Below are positions 40,145-62,461 of a DNA stretch of 64,000 nucleotides, piece by piece. The position numbers were made by a program, and so were the translations under genes. The stretch is from an uncultured Candidatus Saccharibacteria bacterium (GTDB lineage Bacteria > Patescibacteriota > Minisyncoccia > Phycocordibacterales > UBA9973): assembly GCA_964496425.1 (NCBI GenBank), contig CAZBZO010000001.1, positions 205,744 to 269,743 of the forward strand, written 5' to 3'. Under the pieces are notes generated by a model, which searched no databases, was not told the DNA's origin, and saw nothing but the letters and a program-made list of their open reading frames with translations. Position 1 is the first letter of the stretch. Each line of letters starts with the position of its first letter.

Positions 40145-41116
40145 TTAGCATACCCTATGTCCGTTCATGTATTGTTTCAACTCTTTCTTGCCTGGTCCGT
40201 TGGTCGCTCCTCTCATTGTTACTTTTATGCCAGCAACAATAGCGGCCCAATGTACGCATTCCTGTACGCCGGAAAATGTGATGGATCCAATGTTTTCTTT
40301 TATCTCGAAAGCTTTAGAAAGAAATCCTCCATTGAACCAATCTCCTGTTCCGACAGAATAGGTCGGCAGATTTAAACGTAAGGGCTGGAAGTTTCCTACT
40401 TTGCCTTCCAGAGAAAAATATCCCCCATGTTTGTCTTCGGTAATGATGATTAATCGTACACCTAAACTGTGGATCTGTTTGAGACTCAAACGTGCCATTT
40501 GCAACTCTTTTTTGTTTACCAAAAGCATATCGGTGCAACCAAGAATAGTTTTTAATACTGCATGTTTTTTTAAAAGCATCGGCTTGGGGTTGAGTACGCG
40601 ATATCCATGTGATCCATTGAATAATGCAAGCAGAAGCTTTGTGTGTGCAGGTATTATTCCGGTTGCAATGCGCCAATCGCCTTTAAGTGTCTCTACTTCT
40701 CGGGCGGCTTTGTCGAGTATTTCACGAGAAATAATTGTAGAAGTACTACCAATTACGCGATTATTTTCACTCGTTTTATCAATCGGATATACAGCTACGT
40801 TGGCTTTCTTTAATATAGACAGCCGTTTAAAAGATAGAGAAAGTTTGCTCATTGCATGGTTAAGTAATATGTCATAATCACTTTGGGTATTTTTACCCGT
40901 AAGTCCAACAACAAGAGATGAATAACCACATTTTGCTAGTGCAGTTGCAACATTTACAGAAGAACCAGCGGGGAAAATCTCAAAATTTTTTAAAAGTAAT
41001 TTTTCACTTGGATCCGAACTGTCGAATCCAAATGTTATTTCAGCATTTGCTGAAAAACCTATAATTGGACTTGGCATAAGAGTCGATTTTAGAAGTGAAT
41101 TTTCCCCATCATACAC
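40145..41116 (-). CDS. PfkB-family carbohydrate kinase
   Basis: 323 aa with an N-terminal GG-type substrate motif region. The C-terminal ...YSVGTGDWFNGGF... is the PfkB signature 2. Confidence 0.75.
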   Translation of the reverse strand: MYDGENSLLKSTLMPSPIIGFSANAEITFGFDSSDPSEKLLLKNFEIFPAGSSVNVATALAKCGYSSLVVGLTGKNTQSDYDILLNHAMSKLSLSFKRLSILKKANVAVYPIDKTSENNRVIGSTSTIISREILDKAAREVETLKGDWRIATGIIPAHTKLLLALFNGSHGYRVLNPKPMLLKKHAVLKTILGCTDMLLVNKKELQMARLSLKQIHSLGVRLIIITEDKHGGYFSLEGKVGNFQPLRLNLPTYSVGTGDWFNGGFLSKAFEIKENIGSITFSGVQECVHWAAIVAGIKVTMRGATNGPGKKELKQYMNGHRVC

Positions 41117-42538: not shown

Positions 42539-43453
42539 ATGGCAAGCGAAATAGAAAAATATATCCGCGAATTTCTCGAATATATGGAGATCGAGCGCGG
42601 GGCGAGCCTGAAAACCGTGGCCAACTACGAGCGCTACCTGGCTCGCTTCTTTGCATTTACCAAAATCACTACACCAAAAAATATTACTGAAGATGCTGTG
42701 CGCGAATTTCGTCTTCATCTCAATCGCGCCCCTGGCGTGAAAGTCAAAGGTCAAAGCCAAGCGACGCTTAAAAAAAATACGCAAAATTATTATTTGATCG
42801 CGCTTCGGCGATATCTCAAGTACCTTATGAAGCGTGGGATTACATCGCTTCCACCCGACCGAATAGAACTTGCCAAAGTGGGCGCTCGGCATCTCGATCT
42901 TATGTCAGCAGTAGAGCTCACTCGCCTTCTCGACGCTGCGAAAGGTGATGAGCTTCGTTCTCTTCGTGACCGAGCGATTCTCGAACTTTTTTTCTCAACA
43001 GGCCTCCGTCTTTCAGAGCTCTGCTCGCTCAACCGTGATCTCGATACTAGCAAAGATGAATTCTCTATTCGTGGCAAAGGCGAAAAAGTTCGTGTCGTGT
43101 TTCTCTCCGACTCGGCTCGCGCCGCCATTAAAAAATATCTTGCTAAGCGCGCTGACGTAGAAGAGCCGCTTTTTATCCAAGGATCTAATAATAAGACTGA
43201 AGGCAGCCGCCTCACTCCCCGCTCGATCGAGCGGATCGTCAAACACTATGCCATCGTGGCCGGTATTTCCCGCAAAGTCACGCCGCATATCCTGCGTCAC
43301 TCGTTTGCTACTGATTTACTTTCTAACGGCGCTGACATTCGCTCGGTGCAAATGATGCTTGGCCATGCCAATATTGCTACTACTCAGGTATATACGCATG
43401 TCACCGACAAACAACTTCGCGAAGTGCACAAAAAATTCCACTCAAGTAAATAA
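42539..43453 (+). CDS. xerC: Tyrosine recombinase XerC/XerD
   Basis: 304 aa with an N-terminal SAM-like core-binding domain. The catalytic ...HILRHSFATDLLSNGADIRSVQMMLGHANIATTQVYTHV is present. Confidence 0.9.
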   Translation: MASEIEKYIREFLEYMEIERGASLKTVANYERYLARFFAFTKITTPKNITEDAVREFRLHLNRAPGVKVKGQSQATLKKNTQNYYLIALRRYLKYLMKRGITSLPPDRIELAKVGARHLDLMSAVELTRLLDAAKGDELRSLRDRAILELFFSTGLRLSELCSLNRDLDTSKDEFSIRGKGEKVRVVFLSDSARAAIKKYLAKRADVEEPLFIQGSNNKTEGSRLTPRSIERIVKHYAIVAGISRKVTPHILRHSFATDLLSNGADIRSVQMMLGHANIATTQVYTHVTDKQLREVHKKFHSSK

Positions 43454-46847: not shown

Positions 46848-48407
46848 TTATTTTACCCCATGTTTTTTATGAATCTCTTCCAGTTCAGCATTTTCTTTTT
46901 CAGCTTGGGCGCGCTTACCAGCTTGGGCAAGTAGTTTCAATGCATCAAATGGCATTTCTCCAAGCTCGAGTACTCGTTTTTCAAGATGTTGTTCATTGTT
47001 GAGATCGGGATTTTCAAGCGCCTCTTCTAAAAGTGCATTGAGTATCATACCGACGCGTGGTCCAGGTTTTTCATCCAGTATTTCCATTACTCGAGAGCCA
47101 TCTATTTTCAGCATGCCGACGGATGTTGGCGCTCGCAACGCTTCTTCAATCATTGCGTGATACTTGCGTAAGCGATATGGTGCTTCTTTTTTCTTCATGC
47201 CAGCGCGATCACATTCTCTGACTTGCATGAGCTCCCAAATGTGTTCCCTTCCAATATTTACTATTGTTCGCCGTACTGCGGAGAGCGTAATAGTTTCAGT
47301 GTCCGAGAAAAACATATGGTAACGGACAAGTTTTGTTACAAGCTCTGATATGTCCTTTGGAAACTTTAGACGTTCCATTATTTTTACTACCATACGAGCG
47401 CCGATAACTTCATGTCCGTAAAAGGTGTACTTTCCTTTGCCACCAGCTTTAGTCCCATCCCAGCGACGGGTGCGAGGTTTCCCTATGTCATGAAACAAGG
47501 CGGTAAGTTTCACATGAAACGGAAAACTCTTCTCGCTCGCATGGCCAAGGGCATGTAAGCAGTGTTCATAGACATCGTAAATATGCTCGCCTTTTTGATC
47601 GCAGCCAATACCTTCTTCCAGTTCCGGGACAATGTATTTAAGAAGTCCAAGTTTCTGCAGCATACCGATCCCAATCATAGGGTTTGGAGAATCCACAATT
47701 TTTATAAATTCATCTCGAATTCGCTCAGAAGATATATTTTTAAGCAAATGCGCATATTGTAAAATAGCCTCCATCGTTTCATGTGAAACGGTAAAATTGA
47801 GCTGACACGCAAATCTTATTGCCCGCATGAGCCGAAGAGCATCTTCTTGAAAACGTTCATCTGGGAGGCCTACTGTGCGAATAATCCCCTTTTCTAAGTC
47901 TTCTTGTCCTTTATACAGGTCAAGTAGCTGTCCTTTAGAAGGACGATAGGCGATAGCGTTTATGGTAAAGTCACGGCGCTTCAAATCGTCTTCAATTTTA
48001 GTGCTAAATGTAACTTTATCCGGATGCCGGCTGTCTGAATAGGTCCCTTCGAGACGATATGGGGTTACTTCAACTATTTGCTTTTGAGAAATATTCGATT
48101 TTAAGGATTCTGTTACATGTGAAACATCATCGGTAATAGTTACACGTGAAACAGTATCATTGGTTTCTTGCACTACAATTACTGTTCCAAACTCATTTTC
48201 ATAGACGGTTTTTTCGAATAAGGCTTGTATTTGTTCTGGGTTGGCGTTTGTTGTGACATCCCAATCTTTCGGTATTTTGCCTAAAATCATATCTCGGACG
48301 CAGCCACCTACAAGAAAAGCCTCAAAACCAGCAGTTTCGAGCGTAGATGTTACACGTGTAACAAAGTCTGGTATGAGGTTATGAGCGATAGGTTGGGTTT
48401 GTTTCAT
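46848..48407 (-). CDS. cca: CCA-adding tRNA nucleotidyltransferase with HD domain
   Basis: 519 aa. The N-terminal pol-beta NTase region FEAFLVGGCVRDMILGKIPKDWDVTT is present. An HD domain (HDIGK) is in the C-terminal half. Confidence 0.9.
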   Translation of the reverse strand: MKQTQPIAHNLIPDFVTRVTSTLETAGFEAFLVGGCVRDMILGKIPKDWDVTTNANPEQIQALFEKTVYENEFGTVIVVQETNDTVSRVTITDDVSHVTESLKSNISQKQIVEVTPYRLEGTYSDSRHPDKVTFSTKIEDDLKRRDFTINAIAYRPSKGQLLDLYKGQEDLEKGIIRTVGLPDERFQEDALRLMRAIRFACQLNFTVSHETMEAILQYAHLLKNISSERIRDEFIKIVDSPNPMIGIGMLQKLGLLKYIVPELEEGIGCDQKGEHIYDVYEHCLHALGHASEKSFPFHVKLTALFHDIGKPRTRRWDGTKAGGKGKYTFYGHEVIGARMVVKIMERLKFPKDISELVTKLVRYHMFFSDTETITLSAVRRTIVNIGREHIWELMQVRECDRAGMKKKEAPYRLRKYHAMIEEALRAPTSVGMLKIDGSRVMEILDEKPGPRVGMILNALLEEALENPDLNNEQHLEKRVLELGEMPFDALKLLAQAGKRAQAEKENAELEEIHKKHGVK

Positions 48408-48419
48408 GTTTAATCTGGG

Positions 48420-48575
48420 AGATCGCCCGCGACTCGAAGTTCGTCGTCACTCACTTTGGTCTGGGCACCGCCTCGTAATCAGATCTGCTGATCTGATATT
48501 ATTCCGGCGTTCGATTCTCCACATCAGCCGATCAGTCGGCTGATTCTACCCGCGCTGCGTTCGCTTTGCGAACTT
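48420..48575 (+). ncRNA. Unclassified structured-RNA-like element, copy A (homolog of 48898-49040)
   Basis: About 70-75% identity to copy B when read in the same sense. Two hairpins are preserved by compensatory changes (48478-48485/48490-48497 and 48523-48531/48536-48544). A conserved GGGCACCGCCTC and a CG-TTCGATTC motif are shared. The 3' tail CTACCCGC can pair with the antisense 3' end of tRNA-Gly. Confidence 0.35.
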
Positions 48576-48579
48576 GTTG

Positions 48580-48650
48580 TGCGGGTAGGGAGAATCGAAC
48601 TCCCGTCTCATCCTTGGCAAGGACGTGTTCTACCACTAAACCATACCCGC
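48580..48650 (-). tRNA. tRNA-Gly (anticodon GCC)
   Basis: The minus-strand sequence GCGGGTATGGTTTAGTGGTAGAACACGTCCTTGCCAAGGATGAGACGGGAGTTCGATTCTCCCTACCCGCA has a perfect 7-bp acceptor stem. The anticodon loop is TTGCCAA and the T-arm is GGGAG-TTCGATT-CTCCC. Confidence 0.9.
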
Positions 48651-48790
48651 AACATTATTTTTTAATATTAAAACGTGCTTATTATATTATTTCTAAGGCC
48701 AAATAGCAATTTCCAAACGAGTCTTATCCTACAAGGATATTATATGATTTTCAAATTTTAGTGTATAATTTTAAACGTTTTATAAAGTTT

Positions 48791-48862
48791 GCGCCCGTAG
48801 TTCAACGGATAGAACACTAGTCTTCGGAACTAGTGATGTGGGTTCGATTCCTGCCGGGCGCA
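48791..48862 (+). tRNA. tRNA-Arg (anticodon TCG)
   Basis: The sequence GCGCCCGTAGTTCAACGGATAGAACACTAGTCTTCGGAACTAGTGATGTGGGTTCGATTCCTGCCGGGCGCA has the acceptor GCGCCCG/CGGGCGC. The anticodon stem-loop is CTAGT-CTTCGGA-ACTAG. An extended -10 TGTATAAT lies about 25 nt upstream. Confidence 0.9.
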
Positions 48863-48897
48863 CAAACAAAAAAAGACCTGCAAGGGTTTTTTTTGTT

Positions 48898-49040
48898 AGT
48901 GCGCCTCGAGTACGACGACTGCTCGTCGTACGGGCAGGAATCGAACGTCGGAACGATGTCATATCAGCAGACATGACCGTGAGGCGGTGCCCAAGCCGAA
49001 CTGAGCGACGGCGAAGTGAGAGCTGCGGGAGATTTCTGTA
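48898..49040 (-). ncRNA. Unclassified structured-RNA-like element, copy B (inverted homolog of 48420-48575)
   Basis: It has the same architecture as copy A. The hairpins in plus coordinates are 48910-48918/48923-48931 and 48958-48965/48970-48977, with fully different but complementary stem sequences. The 3' tail GGCGCAC can pair with the antisense 3' end of tRNA-Arg. An A8/T7-flanked small hairpin lies at 48866-48893. Confidence 0.35.
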
Positions 49041-49342
49041 TGTTCCTGTGATTGAGTACAATCACCTACTGGGTAAGGAAAGATATCCTGCGCAGGTAGA
49101 AATCTAAAAGTACCAACGACGATAGCTCGAGATATTATGCCGGGCATCTCAATTCATTTGTCCTTTATTATTCAAAAAGGCCCTTATTTATCAACAATTT
49201 GGGGATAACTATGTGTACTATGTGCATAAAGGACATATCTTATTTTGTCGGTTTACAAAGCCATATTTGTATAATGTCCTTAATTAACAAGCTTAAATCT
49301 GAAAGACAACCTTTAAAAACGCTTTTTATGTCTTATAAAGTC

Positions 49343-49366
49343 AAAGTGTTTCACGTGAAACACTTT
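49343..49366. promoter_or_regulatory. 24-bp perfect palindrome, candidate operator
   Basis: The sequence is AAAGTGTTTCACGTGAAACACTTT. A second related inverted repeat AGTTTCacaaGAAACT lies at 49372-49387. Both are about 40-80 bp upstream of the yraN-like gene. Confidence 0.5.
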
Positions 49367-49422
49367 ATATAAGTTTCACAAGAAACTATTCATTTTTTGC
49401 TTGCAGATGGTACTATTTTATT

Positions 49423-50778: not shown

Positions 50779-51438
50779 TTATTTAAAAATAAAGAGCAAG
50801 CGCTTTTTATCACGCGATACTCCAATTTTTATTACATCATTCTCGAGCACCTTTAGGTACCCGCCCTGCCCGTTATCTTCGGTTTCAGTTCCAGGCTTAG
50901 GTTCCGGTATTGGTGCAGGTGCCGGTGGTTCCGGTTTCCTGTTGATGAGAATTTCATCCCCGTTTTCAAGAACGGTGTTGAGATTTCCCTCTTTACCATC
51001 TACAGTGATGATTTCCTTTTCGGCATCAAATCGGATGCCAGCGATCTGCAAAGCATTGGCTACTGTTCCGTCGCCGGGTTGGGCTTCAGGTTCAGAAGCA
51101 TGCAACAATGCCACAGTGTGGCGTTCACCAGGCACGTGGGCGATGGTCACCAAAAATTGGTTGCCCTTAATCTTGGGTACCAACAAAATAATGTCGCCGT
51201 CGGATACAGGTGTGTCCCAGAGCACCAATGTGATTTTCTCCCCTTCCCGGACCGCGAGTTCGCGGCCGTTCAAAAAAGGAACATCAATCATTTCCTTTCC
51301 ATTAGACCCGTATGGGTCTTTTGAGAAAGTGAAATTGCAAACACTGGCAGCAGTTTGCATCGCTGTTAACACCGTTGCAGGTGTATTAATAACAATTTGT
51401 TTTACGGTGCCAGGCACCTTACCACAAGTTAAATTCAT
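50779..51438 (-). CDS. Tandem beta-grasp (ubiquitin-like) protein with an internal Gly-Gly followed by a C-terminal extension
   Basis: 219 aa. There are two ThiS/MoaD-like repeats that end ...VSDGDIILLVPKIKG and ...LENGDEILINRKPE. A Pro/Ala linker is followed by ...TEDNGQGG at residues 193-196, then a 23-aa tail. It is the last gene of the E2-JAB-E1 operon. Confidence 0.5.
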   Translation of the reverse strand: MNLTCGKVPGTVKQIVINTPATVLTAMQTAASVCNFTFSKDPYGSNGKEMIDVPFLNGRELAVREGEKITLVLWDTPVSDGDIILLVPKIKGNQFLVTIAHVPGERHTVALLHASEPEAQPGDGTVANALQIAGIRFDAEKEIITVDGKEGNLNTVLENGDEILINRKPEPPAPAPIPEPKPGTETEDNGQGGYLKVLENDVIKIGVSRDKKRLLFIFK

Positions 51439-51486
51439 TTTTGACAGTTTTGATTGTGAAAAAAAATTGTGAAAAAATTATTTTGC

Positions 51487-52209
51487 TTATTTCCACCCAT
51501 GAGCCGTAGCCACAATGGGTCTGATGCAGAGCATTTCGCTGCTCGCGTGCTGATCACGTTCCTGTAGTTTTACAACAGGTTTGAAATCAACATTGGAAGC
51601 GAACTTCACCAGTTTGTGACTGGCAAGTCCTGCGATCGTGCTCACTACCGTACTTATGGCACGATAGGTGCAGGGAGACTCTTCAGCCTCACTGTCACCA
51701 TAGAGCGTGCCTTCGTATTCACGGACATCGGTCGGGTCGAGCGGCCGCACTGTGTAAATCGTGCCGAGCTCTGCCCCAAGGCGGGTCTCTACAACCAGAC
51801 TGACATCAAGTTGGTATTTAAGGCTGTTAAGCCAAATCTTCTTTCTTGATGACATGGTATCAGTACAAATGTACACGATACCTTCTAGCTTTTGTGATCC
51901 GTCTACCTTTTCGTTGCGAGCGACAACTTCGACGCCGCAATCACGAGAAAGGATTTTTTTGAGAGCTTCGACTTTGGAAAGCCCCACTTCCTCCAAACCG
52001 TAAATCTGGTTTGGAAGGTTGTGAATTTCCACACTGTCGAAGTCCCATGCGGTGATGTTGCTAACCCCCATCTTCGCTAAGATGAAGGCGATCCAGCTTC
52101 CCGTCGCACCGACGCCGATGATGTGCACCGGCGTGGTGAACTGGGCTGGATCAAACATGTCGAGCTGGCGCCAATAATCCGGCGTCAGTAATCCAGATGC
52201 TGGTCCCAT
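51487..52209 (-). CDS. E1-like ThiF/MoeB-family adenylyltransferase
   Basis: 240 aa with the Rossmann motif VHIIGVGATGSWIAFILAKMGVSNITAWDFDSVEIHNLPNQ and IVYICTDTMSSRKKIW. These match MoeB VLIVGLGGLG...LDFDVV..SNLQRQ and the CTDN region. Confidence 0.8.
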   Translation of the reverse strand: MGPASGLLTPDYWRQLDMFDPAQFTTPVHIIGVGATGSWIAFILAKMGVSNITAWDFDSVEIHNLPNQIYGLEEVGLSKVEALKKILSRDCGVEVVARNEKVDGSQKLEGIVYICTDTMSSRKKIWLNSLKYQLDVSLVVETRLGAELGTIYTVRPLDPTDVREYEGTLYGDSEAEESPCTYRAISTVVSTIAGLASHKLVKFASNVDFKPVVKLQERDQHASSEMLCIRPIVATAHGWK

Positions 52210-52871
52210 GTTTTTTGGTTTTTGGGCCAGTTTTTTTCATGGCCGAAGCCGTGAAGTTGAACTGGCTGGTGAACAATTTTTTTGACTTTCTGCTTGACTT
52301 GGTCGCGGATATCCGCTTCCCGAGTATCGTCATGGGGAAGAATTATTTCCCACGAGACGTCGTTGAAACGTAATCCACGTGCAAAGTCATAAAAAGTAAA
52401 CTCTGCCCTGCCGTGGCGGCCGAAAATCCCGCGGATGAACCAGTCGTTACCGTTGGACAATACGTCCATCTGGATTTCGTCCTGACCCGACGGGGATGTG
52501 CTGTTGCTCGGGTGCACGTGGCCCCAAAACTTCAGCGCGTTTACCTTTTCAATTGCTCCGTTCACCAGGAGCTCGGTTGCCACCTTAGCAATATCCGCAG
52601 GTGACATTGCGGTTTCGGCCACTTCCACTTCCTGCTCGAAGAGCATTACTTCTTCGATGGTGTAGACAGAGCTTATTTTTGAAACAGTTCCCAGCCAGGA
52701 GATTTCCTCCCGACCAGAAGCAGCGGCGATGTAGTACATATCCAGGTACGCCGCCAGGCTGACCTTGATATGGGGTACTGCATAATTGAGCAGTACCGTT
52801 TGGGTTTGAAAGTTATGCGGTCGGAACTTGTCCGCCGCATTTACTTTCGTGAAATTATTGAGATATTCCAC
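52185..52871 (-). CDS. JAB/MPN+ (JAMM) metallopeptidase
   Basis: 228 aa. The JAMM motif is exact: E in GREEISWLG, then FWGHVHPSNSTSPSGQD, which fits H-x-H-x7-S-x2-D. Confidence 0.8.
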   Translation of the reverse strand: MEYLNNFTKVNAADKFRPHNFQTQTVLLNYAVPHIKVSLAAYLDMYYIAAASGREEISWLGTVSKISSVYTIEEVMLFEQEVEVAETAMSPADIAKVATELLVNGAIEKVNALKFWGHVHPSNSTSPSGQDEIQMDVLSNGNDWFIRGIFGRHGRAEFTFYDFARGLRFNDVSWEIILPHDDTREADIRDQVKQKVKKIVHQPVQLHGFGHEKNWPKNQKTWDQHLDY

Positions 52872-52918
52872 TGTGTCCGCCCTCCCAGGCAGTTTTTGAT
52901 TTTTGAACTATTTATTTT

Positions 52919-54100
52919 TTACCACTTCAAGTCGTCTTGCGACGGACCTTCTGTAGTTTGAGTTTGTAGTAACTCATCCGCCTTCGGCCACCAGTAAATT
53001 CCCTTACCAGCACTGTCGTCGACATTCACGCTTTTTAGGAACTGAATGGCCAAAATGGCTACTACCGAGTATTGGTACTCTGCGATCAGCTGTGGTAGAG
53101 CCGTCGAGATGTTGCCGAGACAAGCGTCGCCACTTGCCTGTACGTGTGGGTGATGATGGTTGTAGGAGGTGTTACCCTCGAAACCACTTGGTCGGGTGTG
53201 GCCAGGACCTTTACCTTGGTTGGTCAAGTTAAAAAACTTGATACCACCGTTGATAAAAATCTCGATCCGAAATTCACCAATCATATATTTCACCTTGTCA
53301 TGAGTGATATATATCATATCGGTGAAAACTTTAATCACTCCATCCCCAGCCTCGATTTTTTTCACATCCTGTATCGTCAGGAATTTTTCAAATTCCTTTC
53401 TGTAGCCTTCTTCCGCATCGGGCCGCGCTTTTTCAAGCTGCACGAGCTTTTGCTCAGCACCTTTAGTCTCGCGTACCTTGGTCACCAACTCGTCCTGCAA
53501 TTTTTTTATGGCTGTAAAACCCTCATCAATTGCTTTTTTTGTACCTGCCAGCATCTTGTCAAAGCGCTGTGAACAGGCTTTGACGAATGCCTCGCGGCTT
53601 CGGTTCCTCACTTCTTCAGCGCGCTTTTGTTCACGCGCTAATTTTTCTGCAGGGTCTTTTATTTCTATTTCTTTTACCACCTCCTGCAATAGATGGCGAA
53701 AAATTTTGTCGTCTGTATCCTTTCCATGGTGGTATACATCATGGTGAATATATAAGACACTCTCGCCGATAAGCTCGGCAACTGAATATTCTCCGTCGTA
53801 AAAGCTTTTTCCTTCCCCGGAGGGAGAAAAAGCTTCGTCACGGCAATTGACATCGTACCCCCAAATTTTTTGAGGGGGATTGATGTTTTTCCCCCCCCGT
53901 GGCGAACTCCAGATAAAAATCTGGAAATTCATTGTTTCTTTTTTTGATGCCGCACTACCATGTGGCATGGAAACTTCTAACCCTTTTCCATTTAGAGTTA
54001 GAGTGGGGAGGAGAATCTCCTCTACTGCTTTTTGGGCAAGGAGAAGTCCAGCGTCTTGCCATGAAAGGAATTTCACCTCTCCAATGTTTGCGTTGCTCAT
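52919..54100 (-). CDS. Protein with a coiled-coil N-terminal half and a C-terminal E2 (UBC-fold)-like domain
   Basis: 393 aa. The C-terminal ...SYNHHHPHVQASGDACLGNISTALPQ aligns with the UBC active site HPNV-x-x-x-G-x-ICLDIL, placing the catalytic Cys in GDACLGN. Confidence 0.55.
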   Translation of the reverse strand: MSNANIGEVKFLSWQDAGLLLAQKAVEEILLPTLTLNGKGLEVSMPHGSAASKKETMNFQIFIWSSPRGGKNINPPQKIWGYDVNCRDEAFSPSGEGKSFYDGEYSVAELIGESVLYIHHDVYHHGKDTDDKIFRHLLQEVVKEIEIKDPAEKLAREQKRAEEVRNRSREAFVKACSQRFDKMLAGTKKAIDEGFTAIKKLQDELVTKVRETKGAEQKLVQLEKARPDAEEGYRKEFEKFLTIQDVKKIEAGDGVIKVFTDMIYITHDKVKYMIGEFRIEIFINGGIKFFNLTNQGKGPGHTRPSGFEGNTSYNHHHPHVQASGDACLGNISTALPQLIAEYQYSVVAILAIQFLKSVNVDDSAGKGIYWWPKADELLQTQTTEGPSQDDLKW

Positions 54101-60753: not shown

Positions 60754-60958
60754 TCGGTAGCCCTAAAGGATTGCGATTTTAACAATCCAAGTACGGATTA
60801 AAAAATCGGTAGCCCTAAAGGATTGCGATTTCTACAGTTTCTTTTGAAACTAAGAAATCGGGAATATCTCGGTAGTATGCATGTTTTGGGGATATTTTTC
60901 ATTGTTAATTTAACATCTAGGTCGGGGCGTAGTATATCGGTAGTATGCATGTTTTGGG
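60754..60958. repeat. Two pairs of direct repeats sharing a TCGGTAG core (tRNA-fragment-like)
   Basis: TCGGTAGCCCTAAAGGATTGCGATTT occurs at 60754-60779 and 60806-60831. TCGGTAGTATGCATGTTTTGGG occurs at 60869-60890 and 60937-60958. The second copy lies inside the tRNA-Pro-like element. Confidence 0.6.
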
Positions 60959-60993: not shown

Positions 60994-61089
60994 CCTAGGT
61001 GTGAAAAGAAAAATATCCGGATGTTTGGGGGAACATCCGCGGAAATTTCGAGAAGAAATTTATGAGGGCCGAGTTTGCCCCTACTCCTT

Positions 61090-61160
61090 GCGGGATTAGT
61101 TAAATGGTATAACTCTAGTTTTCCAAACTAGTGTCGGGGGTTCGATTCCCCCATCCCGCA
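61090..61160 (+). tRNA. tRNA-Gly (anticodon TCC)
   Basis: The sequence GCGGGATTAGTTAAATGGTATAACTCTAGTTTTCCAAACTAGTGTCGGGGGTTCGATTCCCCCATCCCGCA has the acceptor GCGGGAT/ATCCCGC. The anticodon arm is CTAGT-TTTCCAA-ACTAG. The T-arm is GGGGG-TTCGATT-CCCCC. Confidence 0.9.
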
Positions 61161-61310
61161 CATAAAACACTTAGCCCGGATGCATAGCATTCGGGTTTTA
61201 GTGTTTTACTGCGGTATGGGAATCGAAAGACGGAGGCCGCGAAGCCGTCCGAAGGACGTGGTCGAGTCGGGGTCGAGAAATTTTTATGAAATAAAAAATA
61301 TTCGTAACCT

Positions 61311-61326
61311 ATTCCCCCATCCCGCA
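61311..61326 (+). repeat. 16-nt direct repeat of the tRNA-Gly(TCC) 3' end (att-like)
   Basis: ATTCCCCCATCCCGCA at 61311-61326 duplicates 61145-61160. The about 150-bp segment between the copies is GC-rich and hairpin-rich (for example AAACACTtagCCCGGATGCataGCATTCGGGttttAGTGTTT). Confidence 0.55.
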
Positions 61327-61349
61327 ATTTCCCAAGCAAAAAGCCGCCG

Positions 61350-61380
61350 GATAGGTTGCGGCGACTTTTTGACTCTCGAG
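61350..61380. terminator. Bidirectional terminator downstream of hup
   Basis: AAAAAGCCGCCggataggttGCGGCGACTTTTTG has a stem flanked by A5 and T5. Confidence 0.55.
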
Positions 61381-61720: not shown

Positions 61721-61945
61721 AAGAAAGCGTTTTGCTTTATTTTACTAATGAGCTCGACCGCTTTTGCTAGCTTTTAGGCGAAAGGCGTAAAAGCTTAGAA
61801 ACTATAGATAGTATAGCGCTCAGGCTTTTTTTGGCAAGGTTTTACAGGGTTTCTCAAGATTTGACCAAAAGCTCCAAAAATGGTAGAGTTTTGACAAATT
61901 TCAGACAAATTTCATCTTTTTCACGCATCCAACCCCCTCTTTCAC

Positions 61946-62461
61946 ATGAAAAACTTGCTTATAGTACTCACCTTTTTATTTTTTTCGATCACTGCTCATG
62001 CACAGCAAACAGAGATCATAAAAAAAGCTTCATTTTTTTATGATAACGATACTATGATCATAGAGCACTCCGAGGAATTGATTTCTGGAGAGAATAGACA
62101 ACTTTCTCTTATGATATTTGTATATATAGGATATGTTGACCAATATCAAGATTTAGAGAAGGAAATTAAAGAAATTAAAAATTCTTCCGACAAAGATGCA
62201 TCTCCTCCATCCAAAACCCTTATTCGATTGAGCGAGGAGATAAGCCATGTTGTAGATGGCATGGAAGGAACAATTCAAACTATGGCAAAATCAGTAGATC
62301 CTAATGCTCAATCGGTATACTGTATTAAATTTACTTCAGAGATTGACCCTTCTTTTACTATCGAATCCGTTTCTTATAGAAACAGAATGGAAGAGATGAT
62401 AGAAGGTATTGTCGACCTTCTGAAAAAGAAACAACAGGTTCTACCGGTTGTGAAGTCATGA
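61946..62461 (+). CDS. Secreted hypothetical protein
   Basis: 171 aa with a signal peptide MKNLLIVLTFLFFSITAHAQQ. A terminator hairpin AACCCAGCTTT...AAAGCTGGGTT plus a T-run lies at 62479-62519. Confidence 0.5.
   Translation: MKNLLIVLTFLFFSITAHAQQTEIIKKASFFYDNDTMIIEHSEELISGENRQLSLMIFVYIGYVDQYQDLEKEIKEIKNSSDKDASPPSKTLIRLSEEISHVVDGMEGTIQTMAKSVDPNAQSVYCIKFTSEIDPSFTIESVSYRNRMEEMIEGIVDLLKKKQQVLPVVKS

Follow-up and report, generated by a model that had tools for sequence, protein, structure and literature searches.

Structured elements carrying copies of the host 3′ end behind tRNA genes of Patescibacteria

Integration at the T-loop sublocation of tRNA genes classically leaves behind a direct repeat that extends from the T loop to the 3′ end, and 3′ETS-leuZ of E. 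coli is a short unstructured small RNA (sRNA) sponge at one locus. A large share of bacterial diversity belongs to the Patescibacteria, whose toolkits for RNA processing are minimal. Here we describe a structured element that follows tRNA genes in these bacteria, as found in a stretch of 64,000 nt (hereafter the window) of contig CAZBZO010000001.1 of an uncultured Candidatus Saccharibacteria bacterium. Three of the four tRNA genes in the window carry it: copies A and B follow tRNA-Gly(GCC) and tRNA-Arg(UCG), and a third copy follows tRNA-Gly(UCC) (Table 1). The copies belong to a family with a fixed position and strand, a covarying structure and arms derived from the tRNA, and the orthologous sites of six relatives are free of it. 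This structured family is new to Rfam and to the searchable literature and occurs Patescibacteria-wide, with more than 100 genomes represented, and with moderate confidence we regard A, B and the third copy as members of a family of small insertion elements carried in tRNA 3′ trailers.

A covarying fold on the strand of the tRNA

By scanning one genome per species with the pattern GGGCACCGCCTC-N25-45-GTTCRAWTC, at least 120 matching stretches were obtained, about 100 of which share the whole element, nearly all of them labelled Patescibacteria. The first alignment contained 69 members in the tRNA sense, and its structure was derived from the RNAalifold consensus and inspection; a covariance model of 105 positions and 36 pairs (R1) was built from the homologues, and tRNA genes were called with ARAGORN and the Rfam tRNA model. 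On the strand of the tRNA, the order is tRNA, spacer, inverted copy, helix II, GUG, helix III, 1 nt and direct copy. The spacer is mostly 20–90 nt long (range 2–193), and approximately one third of the spacers hold a terminator-like hairpin between tRNA and element. The inverted copy corresponds to tRNA positions 53–73 and comprises the acceptor part, the hairpin P4, the T-stem part and then GAWUCGAAC. Helix II consists of CGCC/GGCG, a GGA/GA loop and P3 with the loop AGCA, and helix III, beyond the GUG junction, of CCC/GGG followed by P2 with the loop GACG and tandem G·A pairs. The distal direct copy corresponds to tRNA positions 57–73, beginning at G57 and ending at the end of the tRNA, including CCA where the gene encodes it, and a number of these repeats run into a typical terminator of A run, hairpin and T run.

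Arm matches were evaluated for the 92 elements that have a host tRNA. In 71 of them, four or more of five positions agreed in the T-stem part of the inverted arm, and in 36, six or more of seven agreed in the acceptor part, compared with approximately 5% expected at random for the latter; the distal repeat was perfect at all 13 positions in 41 and matched at 11 or more in 50. P4 was present in 59 elements, 5–6 nt before GAWUC, with exactly 9 bp in 45 of these and CUGC as the commonest loop.

The original prediction, made from the letters of copies A and B, had argued for a conserved structure instead of decaying repeats, and the homologues bear this out. In the 69-member alignment, 84% of the cells were paired, compared with 67% in shuffles and about 40% with slid partners, and 473 double changes were counted versus 146 in shuffles. 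In the larger alignment, in which 127 distinct homologues were fitted to R1, double changes were found at all 36 pairs, and 89% of the cells were paired versus 64% in shuffles and at most 47% with slid partners. Divergent members exchange CGCC/GGCG for CGGC/GCCG or CAGC/GCUG, and CCC/GGG for GUC/GAC or GCC/GGC, and the near-invariant helices also covary in members without the search pattern. Two further structural readings were discarded: a kissing loop between GCAG of P3 and CUGC of P4, as the loops do not covary (L012, L019 and L036), and a K-turn at the GGA/GA internal loop, as the bulge has 1 nt and not 3 nt. The modelled three-way junction with its conserved junction nucleotides would be compatible with a small self-cleaving ribozyme; no known small-ribozyme class among the Rfam models matched the element.

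Decaying tRNA pseudogene fragments, small open reading frames (ORFs) or chance similarity might be suspected, since pieces of tRNA-Pro are present in this genome and ORFs of 45 and 93 amino acids (aa) overlap the copies. However, only tRNA positions 53–73 are copied and the core has no tRNA similarity, the covariation and bit scores exclude chance, and the spacing of the invariant blocks (almost always 53–57 nt; full range among homologues 46–62 nt) varies by steps of 1–2 nt. A coding function was rejected because such non-triplet length variation breaks any reading frame, and we consider this explanation refuted, with practically no probability left to it. Another alternative raised with the prediction, a tRNA-derived attachment-type repeat, is true in part: the arms are repeats derived from the tRNA, and they resemble attachment sites or target duplications.

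The prediction had placed the elements convergent with their tRNAs, and on this point it was mistaken. When the paired columns were read in the tRNA sense, the non-Watson-Crick cells included 333 G·A or A·G versus 11 C·U or U·C, and 108 G·U versus 44 A·C; tandem sheared G·A pairs replace A-U in P2 and also occur in the internal loop under P3. Summed folding energies were −1647 kcal/mol for P2 and −1410 kcal/mol for P4 in the tRNA sense, compared with −1323 kcal/mol for each in the opposite sense. The excess of G·A and G·U indicates that the folded strand is the strand of the tRNA, and therefore that the element lies downstream of the tRNA and co-oriented with it. An independent non-coding RNA (ncRNA) of about 150 nt, running towards each tRNA on the strand first proposed, would draw on the facts that the hairpins fold on either strand, that some spacers have bidirectional-looking terminators which could end such a transcript, and that copy A folds in that sense with z = −2.7. 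Nevertheless, it would turn the 333 G·A cells into C·U mismatches, its P2 and P4 would be less stable, and its start in copy A would fall inside the cca coding region, where there is no promoter-like site. Because of the strand evidence we exclude such a transcript, which is left with a very slight probability.

In total, R1 identified 130 copies in 100 sources, and 96 of these copies have a tRNA or transfer-messenger RNA (tmRNA) gene within 200 nt upstream on the same strand. A similar picture came from the pattern matches and ARAGORN, where approximately 85 of 111 had a tRNA 30–100 nt away in one fixed relative orientation. Conversely, 97 of the 177 tRNA and tmRNA genes in element-bearing loci have a copy within 200 nt downstream on the same strand. 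The hosts cover at least 18 isoacceptor families (Ala, Arg, Asp, Cys, Gln, Glu, Gly, His, Ile, Leu, Lys, Met, Phe, Pro, Ser, Trp, Tyr and Val) and also tmRNA (ssrA) genes (L078, L081 and L107 729–827), whose 3′ end is then copied by the distal repeat. Members were found in Saccharibacteria, Paceibacterota, Kaiser-, Taylor-, Nomura-, Yanofsky-, Jorgensen-, Uhr- and Woesebacteria, and in two metagenome-assembled genomes with the unchecked labels Bdellovibrionales and Gammaproteobacteria. A dozen pattern matches from other phyla had no model score and were discarded as chance. Some host tRNAs beside an element were missed by ARAGORN (L106 5330–6001; L042 and L106, right of the element). At least one of them is split by an insert with an ORF that, judged by eye, is LAGLIDADG-like (LGFLMADGY), which fits the group I introns reported in Patescibacteria tRNA genes; these published introns are anticodon-loop introns and distinct from the trailer element.

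In the prediction, neither copy could be matched to RNAs such as tmRNA or RNase P RNA, and the elements also matched none of the 4227 models of Rfam 15, which include hammerhead, twister, pistol, hatchet, hepatitis delta virus (HDV), T-box, tmRNA, 6S, signal recognition particle (SRP), RNase P, group I/II intron and Y RNA families. At the gathering threshold only tRNAs passed, and at E ≤ 10 over 48300–49200 nothing was found on the elements except chance-level matches overlapping the tRNAs. ARAGORN and the Rfam tRNA model found no tRNA gene or cloverleaf within the elements. Searches of full-text literature by topic, taxon and keyword found no description of the element, and its conserved strings led to unrelated papers only.

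The three copies in the window

Aligning 48400–48580 (plus strand) with 48890–49070 (minus strand) by MAFFT gave a mean column identity of 78% between copies A and B, and a repeat search of the region found inverted arms of 99 nt (48419–48517 and 48938–49036) with 76% complementarity, in agreement with the two inverted, diverged copies first described; across measures A and B are 75–78% identical. Both compensated hairpins with conserved loops were also recovered, present and fully paired in A and B: P3 has the loop TGCT, and P4 the loops TCAG and GCAG, when read in the sense of the prediction. Of the two blocks said to be conserved, GGGCACCGCCTC occurs exactly twice in the 64 kb, once per copy, and the T-loop-like one matches each copy's own tRNA, not merely a generic T loop (GGCGTTCGATTCTCC / GGAGAATCGAACTCC for copy A and tRNA-Gly; GTTCGATTCCTGCC / GGCAGGAATCGAAC for copy B and tRNA-Arg). 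The reported complementarity of the tails to the acceptor ends likewise stands: CTACCCGC (48546–48553) complements the acceptor 3′ strand of tRNA-Gly, and GTGCGCC (48899–48905) that of tRNA-Arg. The tRNA-specific sequence of the blocks is GTTCGATTCTCC with CTACCCGC for Gly and GTTCGATTCCTGCC with GGCGCAC for Arg. R1 scored both copies with E ~1e-22, and these bit scores exclude chance similarity.

Table 1. Coordinates of the elements, their parts and their host tRNA genes in the window
Feature	Position	Strand	Basis
tRNA-Gly(GCC), host of copy A	48580–48650	minus	ARAGORN; Rfam tRNA, 71.1 bits
Copy A inverted arm, acceptor part	48546–48553	minus	GCGGGUAG in tRNA sense, exact complement of tRNA-Gly 3′ acceptor strand
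Copy A hairpin P4	48523–48544	minus	9-bp stem, loop CUGA (tRNA sense)
Copy A core, all 105 model positions	48419–48523	minus	R1, 95.6 bits; consensus structure
Copy A helix II	48469–48509	minus	P3 at 48478–48497
Copy A helix III with P2	48426–48465	minus	Consensus structure
Copy A distal direct-repeat remnant, GAUCUCCCAGAUUAAAC	48408–48424	minus	Sequence; family repeat pattern
tRNA-Arg(UCG), host of copy B	48791–48862	plus	ARAGORN; Rfam tRNA, 67.6 bits
A/U-rich 23-bp hairpin	48857–48905	plus	Repeat search, 87% complementary; minimum free energy (MFE) fold
Copy B hairpin P4	48910–48931	plus	9-bp stem, loop CUGC
Copy B core	48932–49036	plus	R1, 97.8 bits
Copy B helix II	48946–48987	plus	P3 at 48959–48978
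Copy B helix III	48990–49029	plus	R1 model structure
Copy B distal direct-repeat remnant	49031–49047	plus	Sequence
tRNA-Gly(UCC), host of third copy	61090–61160	plus	ARAGORN; Rfam
Third copy core, degenerate	61214–61315	plus	R1, 22.7 bits, E ~9e-4
Third copy distal direct repeat, exact 16 nt	61311–61326	plus	Repeat search, 100%

In both A and B the inverted arm is complete, with a T-stem/T-loop part of 14–15 nt, an acceptor part of 7–8 nt and the 9-bp P4, which in copy A divides the arm into its acceptor and T-stem parts. The core of copy A contains the T-stem/T-loop complement GGAGAAUCGAAC, helix II with P3 and helix III with P2, and that of copy B contains GCAGGAAUCGAAC, which is complementary to tRNA-Arg in its T loop and T-stem 3′ strand. 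In the MFE fold the acceptor part of copy A pairs with the 3′ end of tRNA-Gly; the 23-bp hairpin links the acceptor 3′ strand of tRNA-Arg, GGCGCAC, to the acceptor part of copy B, GUGCGCC. The distal repeats have decayed to their first 8 nt, and formation of the closing helix is still possible over its inner 8 bp: in GAUCUCCCAGAUUAAAC only GAU-CUCCC still agrees with tRNA-Gly positions 57–65, and in copy B GAUUUCUG agrees with GAUUCCUG of tRNA-Arg at seven of eight positions, the remainder being decayed. As a side observation, the P3 and P4 stems of copy A share the end bases AUCAG...CUGAU (tRNA sense) and those of copy B only GU...AC, which may be a coincidence.

The start codon of cca in the ORF list (48407) directly follows the 17-nt repeat-equivalent of copy A, and tRNA-Gly, copy A and cca lie in this order on one strand; cca is therefore downstream of the copy, not divergent from it as stated before, and we regard its link to the element as incidental. 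Its closest named homologues are from Paceibacterota, and judged by its genes the window resembles a Patescibacteria chromosome. The tRNA genes for Gly(GCC) and Arg(UCG) diverge from an AT-rich intervening region with promoter-like sites, and because they are transcribed divergently, the pair A and B looks inverted. It does not form a bracketing unit as first proposed, since each copy belongs to its own tRNA and the same element follows single tRNAs and tmRNA elsewhere. Two Logan assemblies with this exact cca (L001 and L002) end 227 nt upstream of cca, inside tRNA-Gly, which suggests that the repeats at the locus break short-read assemblies.

The core of the third copy is preceded by the inverted arm UGCGGUAUGGGAAUCGAA (61210–61227) and, before it, a terminator-like hairpin (61163–61208). 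Its distal repeat ATTCCCCCATCCCGCA is identical to the 3′ end of tRNA-Gly(UCC) (61145–61160) and is followed by a terminator-like hairpin and T run (~61340–61378). Fragments of tRNA are scattered around this locus: a 31-nt copy of the D/anticodon region of tRNA-Pro(UGG), 90% identical, lies just upstream of that gene (60865–60895), and an exact 14-nt copy of its variable/T-arm region is found between tRNA-Pro and tRNA-Gly(UCC) (61062–61075).

Two other features of the window were noted. The palindrome TTTCACGTGAAA, with its one-mismatch variants, occurs six times, compared with 0.34 expected (49349–49360, 48140–48151, 47508–47519, 47777–47788, 61940–61951 and 40720–40731); an exact site lies upstream of UPF0102, and the similar TGTTTCACGTGAAACA lies upstream of UPF0102 in the relative L245. 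The palindrome might serve as an operator or mark a methylation/restriction-type site. In the minus-strand ORF run at 50779–54100, a ThiF/E1-like protein (51487–52209) overlaps an unannotated 228-aa ORF (52185–52871), and the pair is flanked by unannotated ORFs of 219 and 393 aa; the run may be a ubiquitin-like conjugation or defence cassette.

Insertion, host function or DNA signal

For synteny, six relatives were compared (L245, L247, L248, L249, L250 and L251), whose cca genes are 64–70% identical. All six keep the order UPF0102, tRNA-Gly(GCC), tRNA-Arg(UCG) and cca, with tRNA-Gly pointing to UPF0102 and tRNA-Arg to cca, and none has the element. In the window the tRNA pair is inverted relative to its flanks (48408–49422), with tRNA-Gly toward cca and tRNA-Arg toward UPF0102, and copies A and B lie exactly at the two borders of the inverted segment. 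Both distal remnants match the present tRNA and not the other one, which indicates that the inversion did not arise by recombination of one core with the other; either the cassette was turned as a whole, or the elements came later. Within the family, 80 of the 177 tRNA and tmRNA genes in element-bearing loci have no element, including all five tRNA-Thr genes, and this patchy distribution argues for gain and loss rather than a universal requirement. Copies were compared locus by locus. The loci L098 and L110 contain identical tandem units. In L101, the two cores found beside tRNA-Ser and tRNA-Arg are 98% identical, and each is accompanied by a perfect 18-nt repeat of its own, with quite different spacers and P4 hairpins; other same-locus pairs are mostly 40–80% identical. 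Elements from different genomes that stand beside one and the same isoacceptor resemble each other little more than other elements do (median identity 0.667 versus 0.640).

The reading as a small insertion element is favoured because of the distal repeats, the tandem units, the L101 cores and the element-free relatives. Under it, the element would have entered tRNA genes as a small non-autonomous insertion, and the distal repeat would be the mark of insertion at T-loop position 56/57, either a duplicated target or an attachment scar. This repeat would decay gradually, with selection continuing to act on the inverted arm and the fold. The element would be transcribed within the tRNA precursor, selection would preserve the fold as RNA or as single-stranded DNA (ssDNA) of the same strand, and the inverted arm may pair with one of two partners, the 3′ half of the tRNA before it or the distal repeat; in the latter case it would close the three-way junction. 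Between tRNA-Gly and cca no minus-strand terminator was found, and in L068 and L077 the spacers are only 3–5 nt long, from which we infer co-transcription.

Several observations weigh against an insertion element. No transposase, integrase or reverse transcriptase was found in or next to the 130–200-nt unit, and the orphan loci examined, for which only ORF listings were used, showed no larger autonomous version. Such versions were sought at loci with core and repeat where no tRNA lies nearby, which yielded ordinary genes only and one intron-split tRNA. Among viral contigs, the 22-base element pattern had no match, and the 80 loci with the 14-mer GAGGCGGTGCCCAG gave no convincing R1 copy, with two marginal matches of about 25 bits. 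A tRNA-specific duplication of 17–20 bp resembles the products of no bacterial transposase or single integrase lineage that we know of, and to our knowledge no class makes it together with an inverted copy. Copies in the same genome are usually old and diverged, many same-locus pairs being 40–60% identical besides the 75–78% of A and B, and the junction nucleotides hardly vary between classes. Retention of the inverted arm during decay of the distal repeat, together with these junctions, fits a host-level function at least as well as selfish spread; the near-identical L101 cores with different P4 hairpins are explained by core-limited gene conversion as well as by transposition. The terminator-like hairpins in about one third of the spacers would limit read-through, and it is from sequence that we infer the transcription of the element in the tRNA precursor.

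To evaluate which pairing is kept, we compared the two possible partners of the inverted arm in the 22 cases with a diverged distal repeat. The arm was still Watson-Crick complementary to the 3′ strand of the tRNA T stem, with a mean complementarity of 4.1 of 5 positions to the tRNA versus 2.2 of 5 to the distal copy, and it fitted the tRNA better in 20 cases and the distal copy better in none. In copy B the arm reads GCAGG, whereas the 5′ strand of tRNA-Arg itself reads GUGGG, which indicates that the arm truly complements the 3′ strand and does not copy the 5′ strand. The acceptor part was present in 50% of the elements with a decayed distal repeat versus 30% of those with an intact one. In the MFE folds of tRNA plus trailer, the arm is predicted to pair with the T loop, the T-stem 3′ strand and the acceptor 3′ strand, and P4 branches off; the energies are −104.6 kcal/mol (z = −7.1) for copy A and −114.1 kcal/mol (z = −5.7) for copy B. 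This pairing is a thermodynamic prediction, which tRNA folding during transcription may escape.

These results bear on a second explanation, in which the element is a host-serving, cis-acting RNA module of the tRNA precursor that is vertically inherited and often lost. Its inverted arm would clamp the T loop, T stem and acceptor 3′ strand, with the distal repeat competing for the arm, and it would time or direct 3′ processing (by RNase Z, RNase P, RNase III or CCA addition), serve quality control or act as a cis-cleaving ribozyme. In favour of such a module are the junctions, near-invariant across Saccharibacteria, Paceibacteria, Microgenomates and Uhrbacteria, the P4 length fixed at 9 bp, the arm that stays complementary to the tRNA in 20 of 22 cases, the more frequent acceptor part beside decayed repeats, the very stable predicted precursor fold, and the L101 cores, which are homogenised between locus-specific flanks. 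On the other hand, the same tRNAs do without the element in all six syntenic relatives, the 80 element-free tRNA genes, tRNA-Thr among them, speak against a general requirement, the identical tandem units and target-type direct repeats resemble insertion events, and in the predicted fold the tRNA would be unfolded, not helped. We therefore rate a host module as rather unlikely, though a serious competitor of the insertion element.

A third explanation is confined to DNA, with the hairpins and the palindrome of tRNA and arm acting as ssDNA or cruciform signals for a trans-acting recombinase, such as a tyrosine integrase at the T-loop sublocation or an HUH or Cas1-like enzyme; RNA made from the element would play no part. 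The T-loop-to-3′-end direct repeats, the tandem arrays and the elements at the borders of the inverted segment would agree with it, as would the stability of tandem G·A pairs in hairpins of DNA. However, no recombinase is linked to the unit (the XerC/D-like gene at 42539–43453 is 5 kb off and outside it), 130–200 bp is very small for circular excision, and one core at 18 or more different tRNAs is beyond a single attP. Moreover, the orientation is never flipped despite inverted att-like copies, and the preference of G·U over A·C by 2.5 to 1 fits RNA somewhat better. A purely DNA-level element is thus improbable.

Tentatively, the trailer element may represent a new kind of tRNA-directed genetic or RNA device. 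In a mobile version, the GAWUCGAAC guide would recognise the universal T loop, and insertion would copy the segment from the T loop to the 3′ end both ways; we know of no recombinase class that copies this target segment in both orientations. In the other version, a cis-acting trailer ribozyme or clamp would capture the 3′ half of its own tRNA and control its maturation in these bacteria with their reduced genomes. A covarying fold that stands behind approximately half of the tRNA genes in 100 loci and is absent from Rfam is a concrete gap. If mobile, it would be a very small element with exact and harmless targeting of tRNA 3′ ends and an unexplained copying of its target; if host-serving, it would point to an unknown step of tRNA maturation. 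Practically, inverted and tandem repeats at tRNA loci can mislead the annotation of tRNA fragments and the prediction of attachment sites, and in the window they coincide with a local inversion.

Comparison with known systems

The nearest known systems each have a trait in common with the family and depart from it in others. Like the family, integrative elements of the T-loop sublocation target the 3′ part of tRNA and tmRNA genes, leave the tRNA intact, show tandem accretion and have a displaced direct copy of the T-loop-to-3′-end segment at their far border. The direct repeat of the tRNA 3′ end flanking the insert was found perfect in 41 of 92 elements and as 16 exact nt at the third copy, and degenerate at A and B. 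Unlike them, the family has an insert of only 130–200 nt that is non-coding and without a linked integrase, and one core at 18 or more tRNAs with an extra inverted copy of the target and a covarying interior. An integrase in the insert and one lineage per tRNA, which mark integrative elements, were not seen, the ORF listings of the orphan loci giving no such ORF.

Miniature inverted-repeat transposable elements (MITEs), Correia elements, enterobacterial repetitive intergenic consensus (ERIC) sequences, repetitive extragenic palindromes and their mosaic elements (REP/BIME) and Rickettsia palindromic elements are, like the family, short, non-coding, multi-copy and foldable. These small palindromic repeats are also co-transcribed with their neighbours and thrive in some reduced genomes. 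The family differs from them in arms copied from the local target, a duplication of 17–20 nt, a strict placement at tRNA 3′ ends, and copies that are old and diverged yet conserved in structure across classes. Conserved terminal inverted repeats with a 2–10 bp duplication, as in MITEs, were not found, the arms following the local tRNA, and near-identical copies occur among the loci as the tandems of L098 and L110 and the cores of L101, most same-locus pairs being 40–80% identical. Nor did the window show the adjacent reverse transcriptase of retron, diversity-generating retroelement (DGR) or group II ncRNAs: the copies there have cca, UPF0102 and tRNAs as neighbours, and polynucleotide phosphorylase (PNPase) and the XerC/D-like gene are also present in it.

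As to RNA, the closing helix with an intact repeat equals the acceptor and T stems of a real tRNA, which recalls the t-elements of plant mitochondria and the MALAT1 mascRNA. It ends with the tRNA discriminator (and CCA), and could be read by RNase P, RNase Z or the CCA-adding enzyme. Such a mimic is present where the distal repeat is intact, whereas only the inner 8 bp remain in A and B, where the acceptor half of the repeat is gone; unlike in t-elements, a further 4 bp and a two-armed junction take the place of the T loop. Group I/II introns are guided by an internal guide sequence (IGS; P1/P10) or by exon- and intron-binding sites (EBS/IBS), and in the family, too, a sequence on the 5′ side complements upstream RNA, and equally downstream RNA. 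However, the family has no catalytic core and no Rfam intron match, leaves the tRNA uninterrupted and is 105 nt long. Finally, like 3′ETS-leuZ, the element belongs to the trailer of a tRNA precursor and may be something other than a mere by-product; unlike it, the family is a conserved fold that is repeated behind many tRNAs.

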